Source: Rhizodiscina lignyota
Taxonomy: Eukaryota
NCBI GenBank assembly: GCA_010015805.1
Contig: ML978133.1
Location: 620,001-684,000 of the forward strand
Direction of reading: 5' to 3'
Length of the DNA stretch: 64,000 bases
The position numbers were made by a program, and so were the translations under genes. Shown piece after piece: positions 24,601 to 51,348 of the stretch (within the stretch, counting starts at the first letter, position 1; every line of letters begins with the position of its first letter). The notes under the pieces were generated by a model. It saw nothing but the letters and a program-made list of their open reading frames with translations, had not been told where the DNA came from and did not search any database.

Positions 24601-25367
24601 TCCTCCACTCCACACGTTGCTCTAAAACCCTTTCAAAGTCGCTCTTCAGACCTTCTTCTGCCAGCCGAAATGCAAAAGAGGGCGTCCATCTAATCCGGTC
24701 CCCTAATCCCATCCCAATCTTCACTCAGAATCACTCTCGCCCTCCCGCGGCAACCGTGGCAACCGTGCGTCACTAGTGCGTTCTGCCTTACAAGAGCTCT
24801 TCTCCGCCGCCGCTCTTCCTCTTCCTCTTCGCACTCTCTCCAACCAACACCACCCACACTACAACAACCTTCTTCTCTTCATCAATACCCATCTACGACA
24901 CCAGCTGAGCTGGCTGTCAGAGATCTTGCCCCTTTGATCCTTTCTTGTCGCTGCCACTGCTCTGGAGAGCTCACTGCCTCTCAAATCACGCGTCACGCTC
25001 AAGTCTGACGCCACGGGAGCACACACAAACAACAAAATTCCAGCACACACTTAAGGTAAGCTGCGGCTTGGTATTGATGCATCTATTCCCCCTTCGGCCC
25101 TACGCGTTTGAGAGAGCCCGAGATCTCGAGAGCTCAAGATCTCATCGCCGTCGATGCTTGCCTTTTGTTTTCGAGCCGTGTCAAGCTCAGCTTGAAAAAA
25201 AAAAACACGCACACACACGCACCCTTTCGTTGTGCACCCAACTCCACACCGCACGCCTGGCCCCTTTCTTACAATATACATTACCACTCATGTACCTTTG
25301 AAGTTTCGATGTTCCTGTTGATAAAACAAAACGCGGTACGTCGACAGCTTTCCTTTTGTTTCTTTAC

Positions 25368-25459
25368 ATGATGAGCAAATTGATACTGCACGCATAGCCT
25401 TTGAGCTCCTTAGGCTTTACTCTTCGGCAATGGTTGAGATATATGACATTACTCTCTGA
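25368..25459 (+). ncRNA. Intronic box C/D snoRNA 1 (target uncertain)
   Basis: Box C ATGATGA 25368 and box D CTGA 25456 inside intron 25336-25538. Box D is about 60 nt from the branch point GCTGAC. Confidence 0.68.
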
Positions 25460-25612
25460 TCCAATATGACACTCTACCACAGTTTTCGTCCGGATAAAGA
25501 CTTTGCTGTTGTGGTTTGCTGACATGCCGATACTCCAGAGATTTGTCGGCCTCTCGATCTCTTGATCTGTAATACACAGCCCGGTACGTTATACCTTCTT
25601 TTCTTCTTGTTC

Positions 25613-25704
25613 GTGAATGATGAAATTGGTAAAAGGTGTAGAGAGCCACTTGGCTACGAGCCTCGGTGGCTCTCCATGACATACTTTGCATCGTCTGATC
25701 TCAC
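25613..25704 (+). ncRNA. Intronic box C/D snoRNA 2 (antisense to U5 loop 1)
   Basis: Terminal stem gtga/tcac, box C 25617, box D 25695 and internal hairpin gagagccac/gtggctctc. TGGTAAAAGG at 25627-25636 is complementary to conserved U5 CCUUUUACCA. Confidence 0.8.
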
Positions 25705-26083
25705 CTCCGAGACCTTCCTTGGGACGCGTTCATTTTCATACATGGCTGGATGCACATGCTAACCTCCCAATACTCGCAGTGATGATTTCGAATTCCCGAT
25801 TGGCCGTTCGAAGCGCAGTGAGTCCAAACTCTCTTCATTCCACATTTTGATTGTTCAATCGGCTCATCATTTTCCGTCGTCATGTTCGCCAGCATCTTCA
25901 GGACAGCCCGGGCCCCTGGCGTTTGTCCGACTTTGTCGATCCCATGACATTCACTGGGCTTCAGGAGTCGGTCATCCGAGGACATTGTGTCCTGTCCGAG
26001 ATCAAACAGCCGGCGAGCCAAGGGCCCCTTTTCCACTGTAGAAGTCGGCCCTTTCAAAGTTAATTTCTCGGCCAGAAATTAAT

Positions 26084-26226
26084 CTCTGGGTGTGATGATT
26101 CAAATCTAATAATGGGCTACACGCTTGGCTCCCGGAAGAGTTATGAAGGGTTCCTTCTGGTTCCCTTCAAAACCGCCGGGCAGCCACTCGTACGCCATGC
26201 AGAAATAAAGGCAATCTGATCCAGAG
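26084..26226 (+). ncRNA. Intronic box C/D snoRNA 3
   Basis: Perfect 6-bp terminal stem ctctgg/ccagag, box C GTGATGA 26092, box D CTGA 26216. D-guide AAAGGCAA. Confidence 0.8.
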
Positions 26227-26595
26227 TTCTGACCGGCTGACAACCCATCCCTCCAATCTTTTCAATGTTCCTCGGTTTGCACTGATGCTCGTCGGGAGCG
26301 GCGAGAATGTATCTGATTGGCATTGATTTCCCGCTGACGCACTTATCAGATCACTTTGTCCCCTTCTCTTTCTCTCATGCATAACCCTGTTTGAGCTTGC
26401 TAACAACTCGTCTTAAACAGGCTTCGGAGGCAGATCCTTTCGCTGGCGGTCTCATTTTTCGCCTGTCACTTGCTCCGTTTGGAGATTGAGACACGGACGA
26501 GACGCCGTCAAAGACATTGATGGCGAAAAGATTGAGGCGAGCCCAGATTTCTCTTTCCATTCTTTTGCACGAGTTCCTGCACCCACTCCCGTATC

Positions 26596-26668
26596 ATGAT
26601 GAACCTACCATGCTAATGCTGAGCCGTCGGCTGTGACCATCTTCTATTGTTTCAAATCAATTGTCTGA
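26596..26668 (+). ncRNA. Intronic box C/D snoRNA 4, predicted U6 snRNA 2'-O-methylation guide (mgU6-53-like)
   Basis: Box C 26596; guide CCATGCTAAT 26608-26617 pairs with U6 AUUAGCAUGG; D' CTGA 26619; box D 26665. The fifth nt upstream of D' pairs with the A equivalent to human U6 A53. Confidence 0.87.
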
Positions 26669-27077
26669 TCCAACACGGAGAGCTATTTGCCAATCGAGCT
26701 TTGAGACTTCTCTTTAAATCCGAGCTAATACATACGATCTCCGCGCAGGCTTTCCCCTCCACCAGTGTGACGAAACACCTCTACTTCCTCCTCCTCACGC
26801 ACAACGCGAATCACCCAAGCTGCGAACGATCGATCGTTGTCTCGCCGGACTCGTGAATGACTTCTGCATGGCCTGGAACACATGTCCAATATAACAGCCA
26901 GTATTGTCGAAGCGGTTGGTTGAGCACTGTCGTACAATCCAAGGAGCCTGGAAGCTGCATTGTCTGGCCACGCAGCGGGGAAGCTGTCGTTGGATAAGAC
27001 TGGAAGAGTCAGCTTGTCCTACGTGGCCACTGTCATTGTGAGTCTGCCGTTGTTTCCTCCTTTATGGGTAGCACCAC

Positions 27078-27207
27078 GTTGGAAGGATGACAAAGATTAC
27101 GGCAAAACATACCTACCTTAGCTTCTCTTCTGCTCAAGTCAGGGTTGAGATGCAAACGGGATGAAATGACTCCCGTGGATGACCGAAAAAATCTTCGCCT
27201 GACCAAC
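27078..27207 (+). ncRNA. Intronic box C/D snoRNA 5 (variant C box AGGATGA)
   Basis: 5-bp terminal stem gttgg/ccaac, C'-like TGGATGA and box D CTGA 27199, inside intron 27038-27274. Box D is about 52 nt from GCTAAC. Confidence 0.68.
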
Positions 27208-27379
27208 ATAAACACATAGCCACGACTCTTTCTGCCATTTAAAAGTTGCTTGGGCTAACAATATGTACGGACAGGCTCGCCGCTGCCCCGACAAGATGCA
27301 CCAGAGGAGTCTGGTCCCGCACGAGAGCTTTTGCGCGTGAGTCGCTCCATTTATTTCTTCATGAGTACCACTACATTGC

Positions 27380-27476
27380 ATGATTACAACAACAAGATCT
27401 AAGCCAAGCGAGGAGAACTTACCGGCGGTATTGGGCGGGAACGCCTGATGACGACAAGATCTCAATCTTCTTCTGA
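27380..27476 (+). ncRNA. Intronic box C/D snoRNA 6 (antisense to U2 and U6)
   Basis: Box C ATGATTA 27380, C' TGATGA 27446 and box D 27473 in intron 27337-27548. GATCTAAGCCAA 27396-27407 pairs with fungal U2 UUGGCUUAGAUC; AATCTTCT pairs with U6 AGAAGAUU. Confidence 0.78.
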
Positions 27477-28149
27477 CCCACACAAACATATTGCGATGAC
27501 TGTTTCTGCGTATCACAAGTTACTGAAGCTGACAAAATGTACCACCAGATTTGCCCGGAACGAAACGGAGACAAAGACGCATGCAGGACAGGTGCAATCC
27601 GGAGAAGTCTGGTGCAAGGAAATGGCCTTTAACCGTGTGAGTCTGCACTCTGCTTTTCTTCATCAGAGTCCCATGTTGTCTTGAAAGTGATTCAAAAAGA
27701 AGACAATAATGGCTTGGTTCCTTGTGCCATGTGCATCGAATCCCAACTCGCGTGTTGAACTTGTAGTAGCAGCGATATGATCTGCAATGACCCTGCGTTC
27801 GTTGTTCAGCTCCGCTTTATATGTTACTTCGGCTAACGGAATCGTGTTTCCAGGCTCCAAGACAGCGTGAAAGTGACGGCGCCGAAGTCGTCAAAGCCAC
27901 ACTTGGACGGTACCAGCTGGCCTCCACGAGTAAGTGACATCTCAGTCACTACTGTGCTCGAAGAAACAGCTTGAACGGCGATGCTGACACCGAGAGAAGC
28001 AACGGCCAGGCCAACAAGATCATAGTCGAATACAGGCTCGAATCGAAGTGCGAATGAAAGCATAGTCGGCGGTAACGATTCAGACAGTATAGACAACCTA
28101 AGCACGTGAGTCCGGTCTCGTACTTCTGAAACCCAAAGCAGCATATTTC

Positions 28150-28316
28150 ATGATGACAACCCATAATCCAATCGTACAGGCGTCACAGCTTCGGTACACA
28201 TCGAAGTGGTTTCGCCTCGTTGCCTAACCTGCATTGCACATCGAAGTGGTTTCGCCTCGTTGCCTTAACCTGCGGTGTGTGCCGGAGTGCCCATGACGAA
28301 TTTGAAGAACATCTGA
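28150..28316 (+). ncRNA. Intronic box C/D snoRNA 7
   Basis: Box C 28150 and box D 28313 preceded by GAAGAACAT, in intron 28106-28402. Paralog of snoRNA 8. Confidence 0.75.
28197..28273. repeat. Tandem duplication with a 40-nt period inside snoRNA 7
   Basis: cacatcgaagtggtttcgcctcgttgcct(t)aacctgc at 28197-28232 and 28237-28273. Confidence 0.95.
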
Positions 28317-28530
28317 TCCTTAACAATGCCTTTGGAGCTCTGTCCTGAATTGCAAATCTTGCTTTGTCCATCCTTTGCTAACACTATTATCATCGAATAT
28401 AGGCTCAAATTGAACTTTGAAGGGAGAACGAGAGCATGGTCGACGGCAACGATTCGGACAATATGGACAACCTAAGCACGTGTAAGTCCAGTCTCGTACT
28501 TCTGAATCCGAAGCAACTTACTTCATGGAA

Positions 28531-28691
28531 ATGATGAATATCCTATAATCTTCGTACCCTAATGGGTTTTTCATCTTAGTCCATTCCATGGCTCCAACCA
28601 GACTTGTGAGGTTTCGCCTGCCATGGCACACTGGTGGAGCAATACCCCGTCTGTGTGGAGTTATGACATGCAGAAAATGAGGAACATCTGA
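28531..28691 (+). ncRNA. Intronic box C/D snoRNA 8
   Basis: Stem tgga/tcca, box C 28531 and box D 28688 preceded by GAGGAACAT, in intron 28482-28763. Box D is 50 nt from GCTAAC. Confidence 0.8.
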
Positions 28692-28991
28692 TCCAATGAC
28701 ATTACAACTTCATTCTTCTCAAGCACCTTGGATTTCCCGCGCTAACAAGGTTTTGGTAAACAGGCTCAAGACAGACGGCAGACGAAGAAGGAAGAAAGGC
28801 GTCGCGCAGACACTAAAGAGGCGTAATTGAGAATTGAGATTGATTGAAAGAGAAAGTGGAGGAGAAAGAGCTAGTCATTGACGTTCACGAGCCGAGAAGG
28901 CAGGCAGCACAGGAAGTAGACCGGCGGACTGAACCACACACACACCTTCAGTCCCAGTAAATAGCCTTTGACTCAAGATGACTTCTATATT

Positions 28992-45887: not shown

Positions 45888-48689
45888 TCAAATCTTCCTT
45901 TTCCTGCTTGGTCTCGCATTCTTCGCCATCTTCTTCTCCTTCAGGTTCCTTTCCTTCCTCACATCATCTACACTCTTCAGCTCACTCCTCGCGCCCACGC
46001 CATCTCTAAACTTGCCAATCCTCTTCTCCTTCGCCTCCGTAACCTTCTTCTTCTGCTTGTAATAATCATCTCTCCACTTATCAGCTTCCTTCGGAGCTCT
46101 CTCCGCCTTGTGCTTGAACCTCTTCCCACCCACTGACCTAGCATCTCCAGCTGACGCTGTTCCTTCAGCTTCTCCAATGCGAGGCTGACGAACCTTATTC
46201 GCCTTCCTCCAGGCATCAAACCTACCACTACGCAGACTAGCCGCGATCTTCATCCCGCTCTCGCCCTTAACCATCTTCTTCCCTCTGCTGCCGTCGTCGT
46301 CGTTCGCACGAGCCACGTACTTCTTGCTGCGCTTGTCCCACCGCATTCTGCTGGGCTCGGCGAAGGCAGTGGCTTCGTCCTGCGCGAGGTTCATCGAGGC
46401 GTTTCGCGCGGCCGTGACGAAGGAGGTGCTTGATTTCTCGTTCGAGCCGGAGGAGACGCCATATGCGCGATCGGAGACGAAGTTATTGGAGGCGGGGAGG
46501 TAGGACATGAAGTGTTCTGTGTCTTGGAAGGTGTTGGCATCAGAGGAATCATGCTTGGCCCTTTTGGACGGAGCCTCCGATATCGTGACTTCGAGCTCGT
46601 CATCATCATCTTGCATGTTAAAGTCTTCCTGCTCTGAATCTGCCGCAGATTCAAGTTCATCGTCAAAAGCGTCACTTGTGTTTTCGTCGTTGTGCTCATC
46701 GATTGGTTCGTCTGTTTCCACTGTAGGCATCTCACCAACACCGCGGTCAGCTGCCTGTTTTTTCTTCATCTCGATCCTCTTCCTTCTAGCTTGCATGATC
46801 TGAGCAGCAACTTCGCCATTGCCTCTCTTCCCTATTTCAAAGACAGTTTCTTGAGGCCTGAACCCGCTAACACGCTTTAGCATCTCTTCTCGCTGCCTCT
46901 CAGCTCCACCTTCTTCTGCCTCTTTGCTTGCGAAAAGCATGTTCAGCTCGGCAATCTTCGGGCTTGAGAGTATCTCTTTCGAGCGTTTTGCACTCTCGAC
47001 AGACGCCGAATTCCGGGTTCGGTTGTACAATTTCTCGCCCTTTGCAGCTACGGACCGCAAAGCTGTGAGGTCCTCATCTTCGTCTAACAGTTTTGTTCCC
47101 TCCTCGACGCACTGCTCTAATCCGTTCCGCGGGAGACACCCAACCACAACGTCCTCCGCAAAACTCGGTCGACTTTCTGTTCGGCCCAACACCAGCTTCC
47201 TGCTGAGAAAGAGCTGCAGATCGAGCAAATACGGCACGTCTGCGTCTCTCACGAGACTGTAGCTCCACCCCGTCTTCCCTGCTCTGGCCGTTCTACCGAC
47301 TCGGTGGACAAAAATCTTCGCCTGCGAGGTGAAGTCGTAGTTGATGACGTTTGCGAGAACGGGAATATCGATGCCGCGCGCTGCCACGTCCGTGACGACC
47401 AGGATGTTAGAAAACCCGGCGCGGAAAGACTCCACTTGCTGCTTTCGCGCTGTCTGGTCGAGTGAGCCGTAGACGTATGAGACGCTGTAGCCTGACGCGC
47501 GAAGGAGTGCAGCTAGATACTCGACGTGATGCTTGGTTGCCGTGAAAATGATTGTGGAGTGTGGTGTTGGCGAGTCGGTTGCGTTCGCCACGGGTAGGTC
47601 TTTGCCACGCTTTCGCTTCTTAGAGCCAGAATCTGGAGGTTGCTGTTTGCCCTTCAGCTTTTGAGTTGCCTCCGTTTCGCCGATGGGCATGTTGATGACA
47701 TCGCGAAGAATGTACAAGAGTGCTCCTTCTTTCTCAGCGCTCTTTATAGTGAAGAATGCACTTTGAAGGTCAGGCGAAACTTTACTTTCCGCATCGAGTC
47801 TTATGAGTTTGGGTTCCTGCAAGCCTGCTCTTGCGAATTCAACGAGCGAGCTTGGCAAGGTGGCAGAGAATAGCAGAGTCTGCCTGGATGCGGGCAGAGC
47901 TGCCAGAATCTCGCCCAACTGTGCCGCGAACCCCATCTCGAACAATCTGTCGGCTTCGTCGAAGACAACGTATTGAATTGACGAGAGCTCCAATTGCATC
48001 TCGACTTTGAGATGCAGGAAGCGGCCCGGTGTCGCAATGATTACATCCGGATTTGTTGAAGTCATTGCAGAGAATTGATCCTCCAAACTATCGCCTCCCA
48101 CCAGCAGCACTGTCCGCAAATCCGTGCCCCGTCCCAGCTCTTTGACGACCTTGAGCGTTTGTAGCGCCAACTCCCTCGACGGACTCATTATCACTGCCCT
48201 CGCTCCCACCTTCGCGCTGTGCGATTTGAGCTTCTGTATCATTGGGATGACAAACGCAGCCGTCTTGCCAGACCCAGTTCGCGCCATTCCTACCACATCT
48301 TGCCCATCGATAACAAGAGGTATCGTCTTGCGCTGAATCGGCGTTGGAACGGAGAACCCTTTGCGCGTGATTGCCTTGAGGAGCAGAGCATTGAGTCCCA
48401 TGGCTTGAAATCCACCACCTTTTTTGACCGTCTTGCCTTTCAGATTGGATGACTTGCGGTTCGAGGCCGCTTGCGTCGCAGCGATGAAGGACGCATCGTC
48501 GCCGCTGTCATCAAAGTCCGGTTCTACATCTGCGATCGTATCGATGTCGAGCTCGTGCTCGCTATTTCCGTTATTCTTTTTGGCTCGGGGCCCGCTTTCA
48601 TCGTCGCTTAGAGTTGATCCATTGAAAAGAGCGCCAGTTATATCGAGGTCGTTCTCTGACTGAGCCGGTGAGGGCGCTCTGTGAGGCAT
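45888..48689 (-). CDS. DBP10: DEAD-box RNA helicase Dbp10
   Basis: [52 protein letters not shown] and C-terminal WDKRSKKYV. Probable start MPHRAPSP. Confidence 0.96.
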
Positions 48690-48722
48690 TGCACGAATCT
48701 CTCGTGGTCCATCAAACACCCT

Positions 48723-48731
48723 CTTATCGAT
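48723..48731. promoter_or_regulatory. CTTATCGAT motif in the DBP10/DBP4 bidirectional promoter
   Basis: Read directly, with RRPE-like A/T runs nearby (aagatttttt, caaaaagtttt). The same motif lies upstream of the SAS10 fragment at 11610-11618. Confidence 0.5.
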
Positions 48732-48999
48732 GTTGAGAGCTTTTCTTAAAAGATGACCTTCAAAGGACCGTGGACAGTCTCTCTAAGATTTTTTCTAAAC
48801 CTCCGAAGGCGGTGAGTTTCTCCGCAAAAAGTTTTGCCGTTTGCCAAGACTTTGACTTCATGAAAATTCCCAAGTCCGACATCAACCCACATCCGTCCAA
48901 CGACTCACGCTTAAACAGCTACCTTTCTGCGAATTTAGAGGTGCTTTTATATGATGAGTGTGAGACTCATGTCACAAAGTCTATCCACCCTCTGTCACG

Positions 49000-51348
49000 A
49001 TGAACCCTCGCTACACTGGTCGCACGCGACCGACGAAGCCTAAGAAGCAAAACCGCATTCAGAAGCGCAAGCGCGACGATGTAGATGCCGACAAGCTCGC
49101 ACAAGCAGTGCAGGACCTAGATGTAAATGAGCCTTTTACCTCCTTCACCGACCTTCCGCTCTCCCAATCTACAAAGGCGGGCCTCAAATCGGCGCACTTC
49201 ACCACTTTGACCGATATCCAATCTCGTGCCATACCTCTCGCGCTCAAAGGCCACGATATCCTCGGCGCGGCGAAAACAGGCTCTGGGAAGACCCTCGCAT
49301 TTCTCATTCCAATCCTCGAGAATCTCTACCGCTCGCAATGTATCGGTGCAGACGCAGGTCTCGGCGCTATGATTATCAGCCCGACGAGAGAACTTGCTAT
49401 ACAAATATTCGATGTTTTGTGTAAGATTGGGCGGAAAGGACATTTATTCGCAGCTGGTCTCATCATTGGTGGGAAGAGTCTTCGGGAAGAGCAGGATGCT
49501 TTGGCGAGGATGAACATTGTAGTTTGCACCCCAGGGCGGATACTGCAGCATCTAAGCCAGACAGCAAGTTTCAGCTTCAGCGTGGACAGTTTGCAGATGC
49601 TGGTGCTTGACGAGGCGGATCGCATCTTGGACATGGGATTTCAGAGGGATGTCGATGCTATCATCGAATATCTACCTAAAGACCGACAAACGCTGCTCTT
49701 TAGTGCGACGCAAACGAAAAGAGTATCAGATCTAGCTCGATTGTCGCTTCAGGATCCCGAGTATATCTCTGTCCATGAGGCCGCCCCGACTGCCACTCCA
49801 CAAACGCTCCAACAAAACTACATCGTGACCCCTCTCCACGAAAAGCTAGATACACTATACTCCTTCATTCAGTCTGCGAAAAAGTCCAAGATACTTGCAT
49901 TCATGTCTAGTGGCAAGCAGGTCCGATTCGTGTACGAATCATTCCGCCATCTCCAACCCGGCATACCCCTTCTTCATCTCCACGGACGACAGAAGCAAAC
50001 GGCAAGATTGGATATTACGCAGCGATTCGCTGCTGCAAATGCATCCTGTCTCTTTGCTACCGATGTCGTCGCGCGTGGTCTAGATTTCCCAGCTGTCGAC
50101 TGGGTTGTACAGGTCGACTGCCCGGAAGACGCCGATACCTACATTCATCGAGTTGGCCGGACTGCGCGGTACGAGCGTGAGGGCCGGGCAGTGCTATTTC
50201 TCGAGCCTTCTGAAGAGGAAGGGATGCTCTCGCGTCTTGAATCGAAGAAGGTGCCAATAGAGAAGATTAATGTTAAGCAGAAAAAGAAGCAGAGCATCAA
50301 GGACCAGCTGCAGAACATGTGTTTCAAAGATCCACAGTTGAAGTATCTGGGCCAGAAGGCGTTCATCAGCTATACTAAGAGCGTATGGCTGCAGCCTGAC
50401 AAGGAGGTCTTCAAGCTGAAAGAGCTACCGCTGGAGGAATTTGCGACGAGCCTTGGATTACCCGGTGCGCCGAGGATCAAATTCCTGGGCACAGCGCAAA
50501 ACCAGGATGAGCAAAAGATGAAGAAGAATGCTCCGAGGAGAGGATTGAGTCCTGCGAGCAGCGATGAAGAGGAACTTGCCAATGACGGCGAATCGGAAAT
50601 GAAAGATGGCAAGAAAGACAAAGATGGCGTTAGGACGAAGTATGATCGAATGTTCGAGAGGAAGAATCAAGATGTGTTGGCGGAACATTACACGAAATTG
50701 ATTGGCGACGAGGAGGATACTGACGAAGCTCATGCGAATGGACTCAATGGCGACCATTTGGATGACGATGAAGAGCACGAAGAAGTGGGATTCTTGACCG
50801 TAAAACGACGGATTCCAGCACAAGACGCGACCTTTGGCCGTGTGGCACCGCAACCTCTACCAAATGGAAGGCAGCAGAGAACGGTGCATATTGAGGGCGC
50901 AGCACAACCTCTGATTGTCGATTCGAAACGTCGCGAGAAGCTACTCCAATCAAGAAAGAAGGTTACAAAGCTCAAAGACAAGGGAACGCGCACCGTTTTC
51001 GATGACGAAGGAAGACCACACGCTTTGTATGAGTTCGAAGACGAGGAAGGCTTCAAAGCGAAGGGCAAGCCGGAGGAACAGAGGGCAGCGTTTGAGGAGA
51101 GGGAAAAGGCTAGGGTACAGGCTGTAGATGTTACAGATAAAGCAGAGGCGAAGAGGAAAAGGAAGGAGAAGATATGGAAGCGTAAGGAGAGGGAGCGTGC
51201 AGAGGCTGAAGCTGGGGTTGAGATGGATGATGAAGACGAGGATGAAGAAGGGCGTTATGAGGGCACCAAGCAGATGAGAATTGAGGAGGATGAGCCAGAG
51301 GGAACACTCGAGGATTTGGAAGATATGGCTAAAGGTTTGTTCGGGTAG
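49000..51348 (+). CDS. DBP4: DEAD-box RNA helicase Dbp4 (Hca4/DDX10)
   Basis: [54 protein letters not shown] and [16 protein letters not shown]. Confidence 0.96.

Follow-up and report, generated by a model that had tools for sequence, protein, structure and literature searches.

Which spliceosomal RNA is served by the small intronic RNA encoded at positions 27380-27476? Within the window, by which we mean the whole stretch of 64,000 nucleotides that was analysed, this RNA had originally been predicted to be antisense to both U2 and U6 around helix I. The stretch comes from an ascomycete, judging by the nearest Cef1 cluster, whose members are mostly Ascomycota. We searched the genome (33.4 Mb, 33 contigs) and took its own snRNA genes as the pairing targets, finding 17 U2, 1 U6, 1 U5, 7 U1 and 3 U4 matches. 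With about even confidence, we read the locus as encoding a box C/D guide, carried in an intron, that would clamp U2 with a preference for a variant form of it and would methylate an A in the rewritten branch-recognition loop of this variant. The features and their positions are listed in Table 1.

Table 1. Positions of the features of the snoRNA locus and of the variant U2 genes
Feature	Position	Strand	Basis or fit
Intronic C/D cluster, eight candidates, one per GT-AG intron (by eye)	25056..28763	+	sequence
Tandem paralog in intron 27038-27274, degenerate C box	27084..27202	+	alignment
Host intron, GTGAGT...GCTGAC branch (27528)...CAG	27337..27548	+	sequence; predicted splicing
SnoRNA, 97 nt, box C/D type	27380..27476	+	sequence
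C box ATGATTA, one mismatch to consensus	27380..27386	+	sequence
Accessory element against U2 nt 39-43	27391..27395	+	5/5 in 5/5 variant copies, 4/5 in 8/8 canonical copies tested
Arm A1 against U2 nt 16-27 (helix I strands and the 3′ strand of stem I), 12 Watson-Crick pairs	27396..27407	+	pairing map
Arm A2 against U2 nt 1-12	27408..27419	+	12/12 in 4/5 variant copies; canonical copies at most 11/12
Arm B against the U2 3′ domain, L041 nt 147-160 and 138-145	27420..27441	+	22/22 on variants L034 and L041
Internal hairpin, GGAA loop, immediately 5′ of C′	27434..27445	+	folding
C′ box TGATGA, perfect	27446..27451	+	sequence
D guide, +5 base at 27468	27464..27472	+	variant U2 nt 34, U6 A48-equivalent, or U4
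D box CTGA	27473..27476	+	sequence
Variant U2 genes L034, L036, L037 and L038	G000:C6:1596496-1672498, within 80 kb		segment ACGAAGAUUUU
Variant U2 gene L041	G000:C24:136764		branch-recognition segment ACGAAGAUUUU

The predicted host of the RNA is a multi-intron, non-coding transcript, and no ORF of at least 150 aa overlaps positions 25000-28990 of the window. With a C box at its 5′ end and a CUGA D box at its 3′ end, the RNA has the terminal boxes of the box C/D class, in which the C box consensus is RUGAUGA. The only D′ candidate is a degenerate TTGG ahead of the internal hairpin; no CUGA-like box was found after the U2 arm, in agreement with the original prediction. Shuffled sequences folded on themselves equally well (z −0.09), and no G·U repeat of the kind that could be a Cajal-body signal was noticed in the 97 nt. 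The Rfam scan of the window gave no matches at the gathering score, and no family matched 27380-27476 at E ≤ 10. The RNA is no recognizable member of snoZ30, which we take to be the mgU6-47 family, and the predicted site also differs. Elsewhere in the window, at 45888-51348, a DEAD-box helicase-like ORF on one strand is back to back with another on the opposite strand; by resemblance, we take them to be Dbp10-like and Dbp4-like.

Throughout its interior, the RNA is antisense to U2. The 12 contiguous U2 pairs claimed earlier are present on the own U2 genes, where 27396-27407 pairs with nt 16-27 exclusively by Watson-Crick pairs, plus a G·U pair at nt 15. They are part of a U2-complementary run of 51 contiguous nt (27391-27441) that covers U2 nt 1-12, 16-27, 39-43 and about 138-160. 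About 39 of these pairing bases, as well as the variant U2 genes, were missing from the original prediction. Its view of a box C/D RNA antisense to snRNAs stands, with U2 pairing that reaches beyond the helix I strand, and U6 as the specific target of the D guide is unsupported. Arm B is directed to the 5′ side of stem-loop IV and the 3′ side of stem-loop III. The internal hairpin competes with the distal portion of this arm, and use of the degenerate TTGG (27431-27434) as a D′ box could possibly let its 5′ half act as a guide, with a G of stem IV as the target. In an alternative pairing, 27391-27400 forms 10 bp with nt 34-43 of variant U2.

We compared the strength of these arms with shuffled sequences. 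The 24-nt arm 27396-27419 beat 1000/1000 dinucleotide shuffles on each of the three U2 copies tested, and its 13-nt core by itself was matched by 6-11 of 1000. On the variant gene L041, the energies were −36.3 kcal/mol for 27396-27419 and −36.1 kcal/mol for 27420-27442, which none of 1000 shuffles and none of 10,664 window tiles (both strands) reached, the top 23-nt tile being arm B itself. The corresponding energies on canonical U2 were −32.1 kcal/mol (0/1000 shuffles) and −31.0/−31.5 kcal/mol (2/1000). Against U6, pairing of the interior arms was within the shuffle range (316 and 831 of 1000).

In its interior, the RNA looks like two antisense fragments of variant U2 that were joined in swapped order (nt 27 to 1 followed by 160 to 138). 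This arrangement would fit a U3-like folding chaperone or sequestering RNA for U2, or a captured antisense U2 with little function, in which the D guide is either a vestige or made redundant by that of the paralog. The pairing of 51 nt goes well beyond the needs of methylation, the C box is imperfect, the D′ box is degenerate, and the long arms are absent from the paralog, all of which are in favor of such a role. We still find it unlikely. Compared with the exact antisense of L041, all six substitutions are A>G or C>T and keep pairing as G·U. The chance of six out of six pairing-preserving substitutions is 0.054 if only transitions occur and 0.0025 at 60% transitions, suggesting selection for pairing rather than the decay of a captured fragment. 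In addition, the D-guide core, the D box, and the C′ box are intact and conserved between the RNA and its paralog.

The preferred reading, a guide that clamps variant U2, depends on how the two classes of U2 differ. The 17 U2 matches consist of 8 full canonical copies, 5 variant copies, and 4 odd or partial copies. The branch-recognition segment is GAAGAU in variant U2 and GUAGUA in canonical U2. Upstream regions of the variant genes contain TATA and pyrimidine tracts and resemble those of the canonical copies. In an alignment of 10 U2 copies, 94% of 300 pair cells were paired in a structure that we specified ourselves. Double-sided changes were found at 8/30 pairs, including stems IIa, IIb, and IV, although the shuffle control for compensatory changes ignores the kinship of the copies, and related copies inflate it. 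When the branchpoint-interacting stem-loop is drawn in a register based in part on the available text of PMC13019295, variant U2 has two additional A-U pairs and a 7-nt loop (nt 31-37); isolated folding of variant U2 gives another local hairpin than the drawn one. From these sequences, the variant U2 class looks maintained in the genome.

Two other U2-like genes, L035 (G000:C6:1601015-1601205) and L021 (G000:C8:258068-258281), are divergent and have other rewritten branch-recognition segments. Both have TATA/pyrimidine regions upstream, and the helix Ia strand is also altered in L035. Fragments of U2, U4, and SSU rRNA are clustered at G000:C17:253780-258320 (L011, L018, L028, L043, L044) and are possibly captured pieces.

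In a fixed register including the D guide, 59/60 positions are paired on L041 and 58/60 on L034, compared with 53/60 on the best canonical copy, L033; arm B was unscored in 3/14 U2 copies (L031, L037, L035), in which its anchor motif is absent. Without the D guide, the values are 51/51 for L041 and 48/51 for L033, so that complete pairing of the run is confined to the variant class, and no position favors L033 over L041. The target of arm A1 is identical in both U2 classes, and the discriminating positions outside the D guide number only two to three. Arm B fits three of the five variants (L036, L037, L038) more poorly than the canonical copies L032 and L033. Whole-molecule cofolding showed no preference for variant U2, with −17.2 to −21.3 kcal/mol for the 8 canonical copies, −13.5 to −19.8 kcal/mol for the 5 variants, and −13.5 kcal/mol for U6. 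Because cofolding allows nested structures only, all arms cannot form together in this calculation. The cofolding energies were reached by 0/200 shuffles on L041 and 1/200 on L033.

The D guide is the part of the RNA that brings in U6. On the single U6 gene found, it forms eight Watson-Crick pairs and one G·U pair over +1 to +9, as had been claimed. Its +5 position lies opposite the A that immediately follows ACAGAGA, and the U6 site is therefore the equivalent of human A48, not A47; the earlier assignment of the site one nucleotide from Am47 is correct. The human numbering is anchored on m6A43 in ACAGAGA, and Am47 is the known human site in the available text of PMC7960923. In Neurospora, the predicted U6 site is likewise A47, according to the accessible part of PMC2780460. 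The U6 match is not specific. For the guide core (+3 to +9), U6, U4, and nt 32-38 of variant U2 are equally good partners, as they share the same 7-mer. U6 extends this core by +1 and +2, whereas variant U2 is mismatched at +2, and the duplex on U6 is longer and has a lower energy (−9.1 vs −6.7 kcal/mol). By energy alone, the U6 match is within the shuffle range, equalled by 145/1000 shuffles for the last 12 guide bases and by 402/1000 for the last 21. The +5 target on variant U2 is the second A of GAAG at nt 34, which we take to be the position of human A35. Only 5/9 positions of the D guide pair with canonical U2. The guide lengths of 9 bp (U6) and 7 bp (variant U2 or U4) are below the 10-21 nt given for C/D guides in the available text of PMC8162545. 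The 7-mer to which the D guide pairs also turns up in a hairpin of the U5 gene (L008), in its 3′ end or its trailer, so the word is common among snRNAs.

Genome-wide, a perfect U6-A47 guide at most 30 nt from a C box had no matches, with a pattern that may miss others. The D guide of 27380-27476 combined with a D box had 27 matches compared with 11 in the control, and only 27380-27476 and its paralog were C/D-like among the 27, with L171 being doubtful. Since the own rDNA is fragmentary, we tested rRNA targets on the rDNA repeat of another, distant fungus as a proxy (L119). It gave one 10-bp match with two G·U pairs, at a place where the own LSU fragment differs by eye, and an 18S or 25S target was unsupported on this proxy. 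In two of the own rRNA fragments (L009, L010), there are apparent GT-AG introns of the spliceosomal type, and their branch sites read GCTAAC.

The upstream paralog shares 72% identity with 27380-27476 over 92 nt (E 1.7e-11); a DNA search of the own genome with 27380-27476 returned the self-match only. The paralog D guide has the same 7-nt core, register, and target A. It forms 10 Watson-Crick pairs with nt 31-40 of variant U2, compared with 9 pairs on U4 (one G·U) and 7 on U6. For the surrounding cluster, the best matches are snRNAs, several of them variant U2. Here a better fit on variant than on canonical U2 is seen for two D guides, at 28313 and 28688, and for an element at 28547. The second tandem exon/intron duplication of the region, at 28010-28693, has 77% identity over 152 nt; both of its D guides are directed to U2 nt 43 with a better fit on variant U2, and a stretch of about 40 nt is repeated within the first copy.

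Other members of the cluster have different snRNA matches. The C/D RNA at 26594-26670 is mgU6-53-like, having a guide of 10 Watson-Crick pairs for the U6 A53-equivalent, and a second U6 element of 13 bp at 26645-26657 is outside the D-box register. Of the weak Rfam matches in the cluster, the strongest is to snoU6-53 (26591-26665, E 0.49). Two C/D RNAs are antisense to U5 loop I, one at 25615-25700 (13 bp with three G·U pairs) and one at 26090-26222. The 8-bp D guide of the latter fits both U5 and U2 nt 9-16; on U2, its +5 base is a C, one base off the known methylated G positions. The C/D RNA at 25365-25462 has a 10-bp element (one G·U) against nt 30-39 of the canonical U2 branch-recognition segment. 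Its D′ box is degenerate, and one reading leads to nt 34, a target shared with the variant guides.

These results allow us to weigh a guide with two substrates in separate events, in which the D guide directs methylation of the U6 A48-equivalent and the arms bind canonical or variant U2 and serve a U2 site via the degenerate D′ box. The more stable U6 duplex and the U6 A53 guide in the same cluster favor this explanation, as do the dual-target fungal guides CD11 and CD29 described for Neurospora in the accessible part of PMC2780460. Furthermore, Table 3 of PMC8053127, as far as available, lists Arabidopsis U6 methylation at A43 and A48. By the 5-nt spacing, these positions may equal human A48 and A53, suggesting a precedent for A48. 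The longer and stabler duplex together with the Arabidopsis sites makes U6 a real rival or second target. However, the match is readily equalled by shuffles, the guide core is common to variant U2 and U4, the paralog has just 7 bp with U6 in the same register, the interior arms have no U6 pairing above shuffles, and the site in human and Neurospora is A47 in the available texts (PMC7960923, PMC2780460). We consider the dual-substrate explanation rather improbable as a whole, and methylation of U6 A48 is a possible second activity of a guide that serves variant U2.

The original prediction placed the U2 and U6 segments on the strands of U2/U6 helix I, and they do overlap these strands, which is our assumption for the parts other than U2 G25-C28. 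The available text of PMC13019295 places G25-C28 in helix Ia. The overlap raises the idea that one RNA joins U2 to U6 and acts on helix I as a chaperone or as a block. On paper, simultaneous binding is conceivable since U2 and U6 use separate parts of the RNA. However, at −8 to −9 kcal/mol the U6 duplex is weak, and it is unspecific, the U2 pairing is mostly outside helix I, and no precedent of a U2/U6-bridging guide was found in the literature searched. As far as is known, guides act on snRNAs during biogenesis, before U2 meets U6. We therefore regard the joining of U2 and U6 as very improbable, and the sequence makes a dedicated U2 modifier more likely than a bridge.

For the preferred U2 guide, we infer the steps beyond the sequence match as follows. 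The RNA would be spliced from its host and loaded with C/D proteins. The accessory arms would then invade stem I of U2, along with the two sides of the branchpoint-interacting stem-loop (nt 1-27, 39-43), and arm B would anchor the RNA on the U2 3′ domain. This invasion would free loop nt 31-37 for pairing with the 7-bp D guide, and fibrillarin would 2′-O-methylate nt 34 of variant U2, the second A of its GAAG. The elements tile nt 1-12, 16-27, 32-38, and 39-43 of variant U2 with no overlap. Such non-overlapping tiling gives a coherent mechanism, in which the branch stem-loop and stem I would be opened by the arms, making the loop accessible to a short guide. Enhancement of methylation through accessory pairing is described for C/D RNAs in the available portions of three studies (PMC8162545, PMC8522698, PMC8053127). 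The RNA may have originated by tandem duplication of the upstream guide, with the 27380-27476 copy having a shorter core and long accessory pairing. A metagenome scan for orthologs (C box, U2 arm, and D box) gave 34 matches, none with the C′/guide layout or intron context by eye. Lacking the guide layout, these matches were taken as chance; the exact-match pattern would miss diverged orthologs. A search of sequencing runs found the sequence in one run, probably that of the source assembly, and in no RNA run.

A further question is the role of variant U2 in splicing. A second functional U2 snRNP with the GAAGAU segment, its own guide set, and 27380-27476 as a clamp unfolding nt 1-43 would constitute a natural orthogonal spliceosome in an ascomycete, which we regard as doubtful. 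The GAAGAU segment is predicted to read AUCUUAC branch sites, and the partner of such a snRNP is possibly a variant U1 at C8:257112 with the 5′ arm AUACUCAGAA. This U1-like gene (L153, G000:C8:257112-257266) has a promoter and terminator that look intact and is located about 0.8 kb from L021; its 5′ arm AUACUCAGAA would read a 5′ splice site beginning with CUGAGU. Another candidate for a variant U1, L025, was rejected because it is an intron-split U1, and L025, L151, and L152 are all U1 genes whose 5′ arm is interrupted by a spliceosomal intron.

Matches to an intron pattern that would suit variant U2 (GTRHGT...ATCTTAC...YAG) numbered 62 genome-wide compared with 72 in the control. In 560,434 bases, CTTA-type branch sites were found downstream of 37/1074 splice-like hexamers and 34/1594 controls, CTCA being similar (41, 47), and YTGAGT...TCTTAY had 9 unremarkable matches. 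As no matching intron class was found, we treat the function of variant U2 as a hypothesis. The variant U2 pattern had no matches in prokaryote-genome contigs and none in viral contigs, which are weak tests since these collections are non-fungal.

The U2 branch-recognition motif is nearly invariant. GTAG is present in most fungal U2 genes and in 93% of Rfam representative U2 sequences, as given in the available text of PMC10638238. If our reading is true, a rewritten multicopy U2 with compensatory stems and matched guides would mean that the cell produces a natural variant U2 and brings it to maturity. This finding would provide a handle on natural reprogramming of branch-site specificity, which is described for an engineered orthogonal system in the accessible part of PMC13019295. 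With an snRNA as its substrate, the RNA itself would be an extreme case of accessory pairing. Should the U6 reading be true instead, the significance would be modest, namely a fungal guide one base from the usual U6 site and probably common to plants.

Among known systems, mgU6-47 (SNORD7; S. pombe mgU6-47) and Neurospora CD11/snR53 are likewise guides complementary to U6 just after ACAGAGA. They target A47 in the available texts (PMC7960923, PMC2780460), whereas the +5 base of 27380-27476 points to A48. CD11 uses a D′ guide and also targets 18S, and long U2 arms are not described for this group in the accessible part of PMC2780460. The only U6 target mentioned in the available portion of PMC5824354 is of the snR53 type.

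On the U2 side, SCARNA2 (Gm11/25/61), SCARNA9 (Gm19/Am30), SNORD89 (Gm12), and CD29 (U2-Am31) are also C/D guides for the 5′ region, but the sites listed for them, for the human guides in the text available of PMC7960923, differ from the one predicted here. None of the U2 positions G11/12, G19, G25, A30, C40, U47, or C61 is in the D/D′ register of 27380-27476, and an A35/A36 site is absent from Table 3 of PMC8053127 as far as available. A fungal U2 with the GAAGAU motif or such a guide was not found in the literature searched, and an earlier description is possible. Fungal U2 guides in the accessible sources have single elements of 11-16 bp, in contrast to the 51 contiguous nt and four U2 segments of 27380-27476, which fit variant U2 best. 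We read the RNA as a C/D guide whose pairing with U2 is unusually long and which most likely serves a variant U2.

The genomic setting resembles clusters I-V of Neurospora, which likewise have one C/D RNA per intron in an ORF-poor host (PMC2780460, accessible part). The best matches of the present cluster are snRNAs, with rRNA tested on the distant proxy only. C/D RNAs with accessory pairing, and atypical C/D RNAs of the U3, snR4, and snR45 types, likewise use extra pairing that helps substrate binding or folding, and in the available texts they are mostly directed to rRNA (PMC8162545, PMC8522698, PMC8053127). Unlike in these RNAs, the extra pairing of 27380-27476 takes up the whole interior from the C box to the C′ box and reaches about 110 nt from the target.
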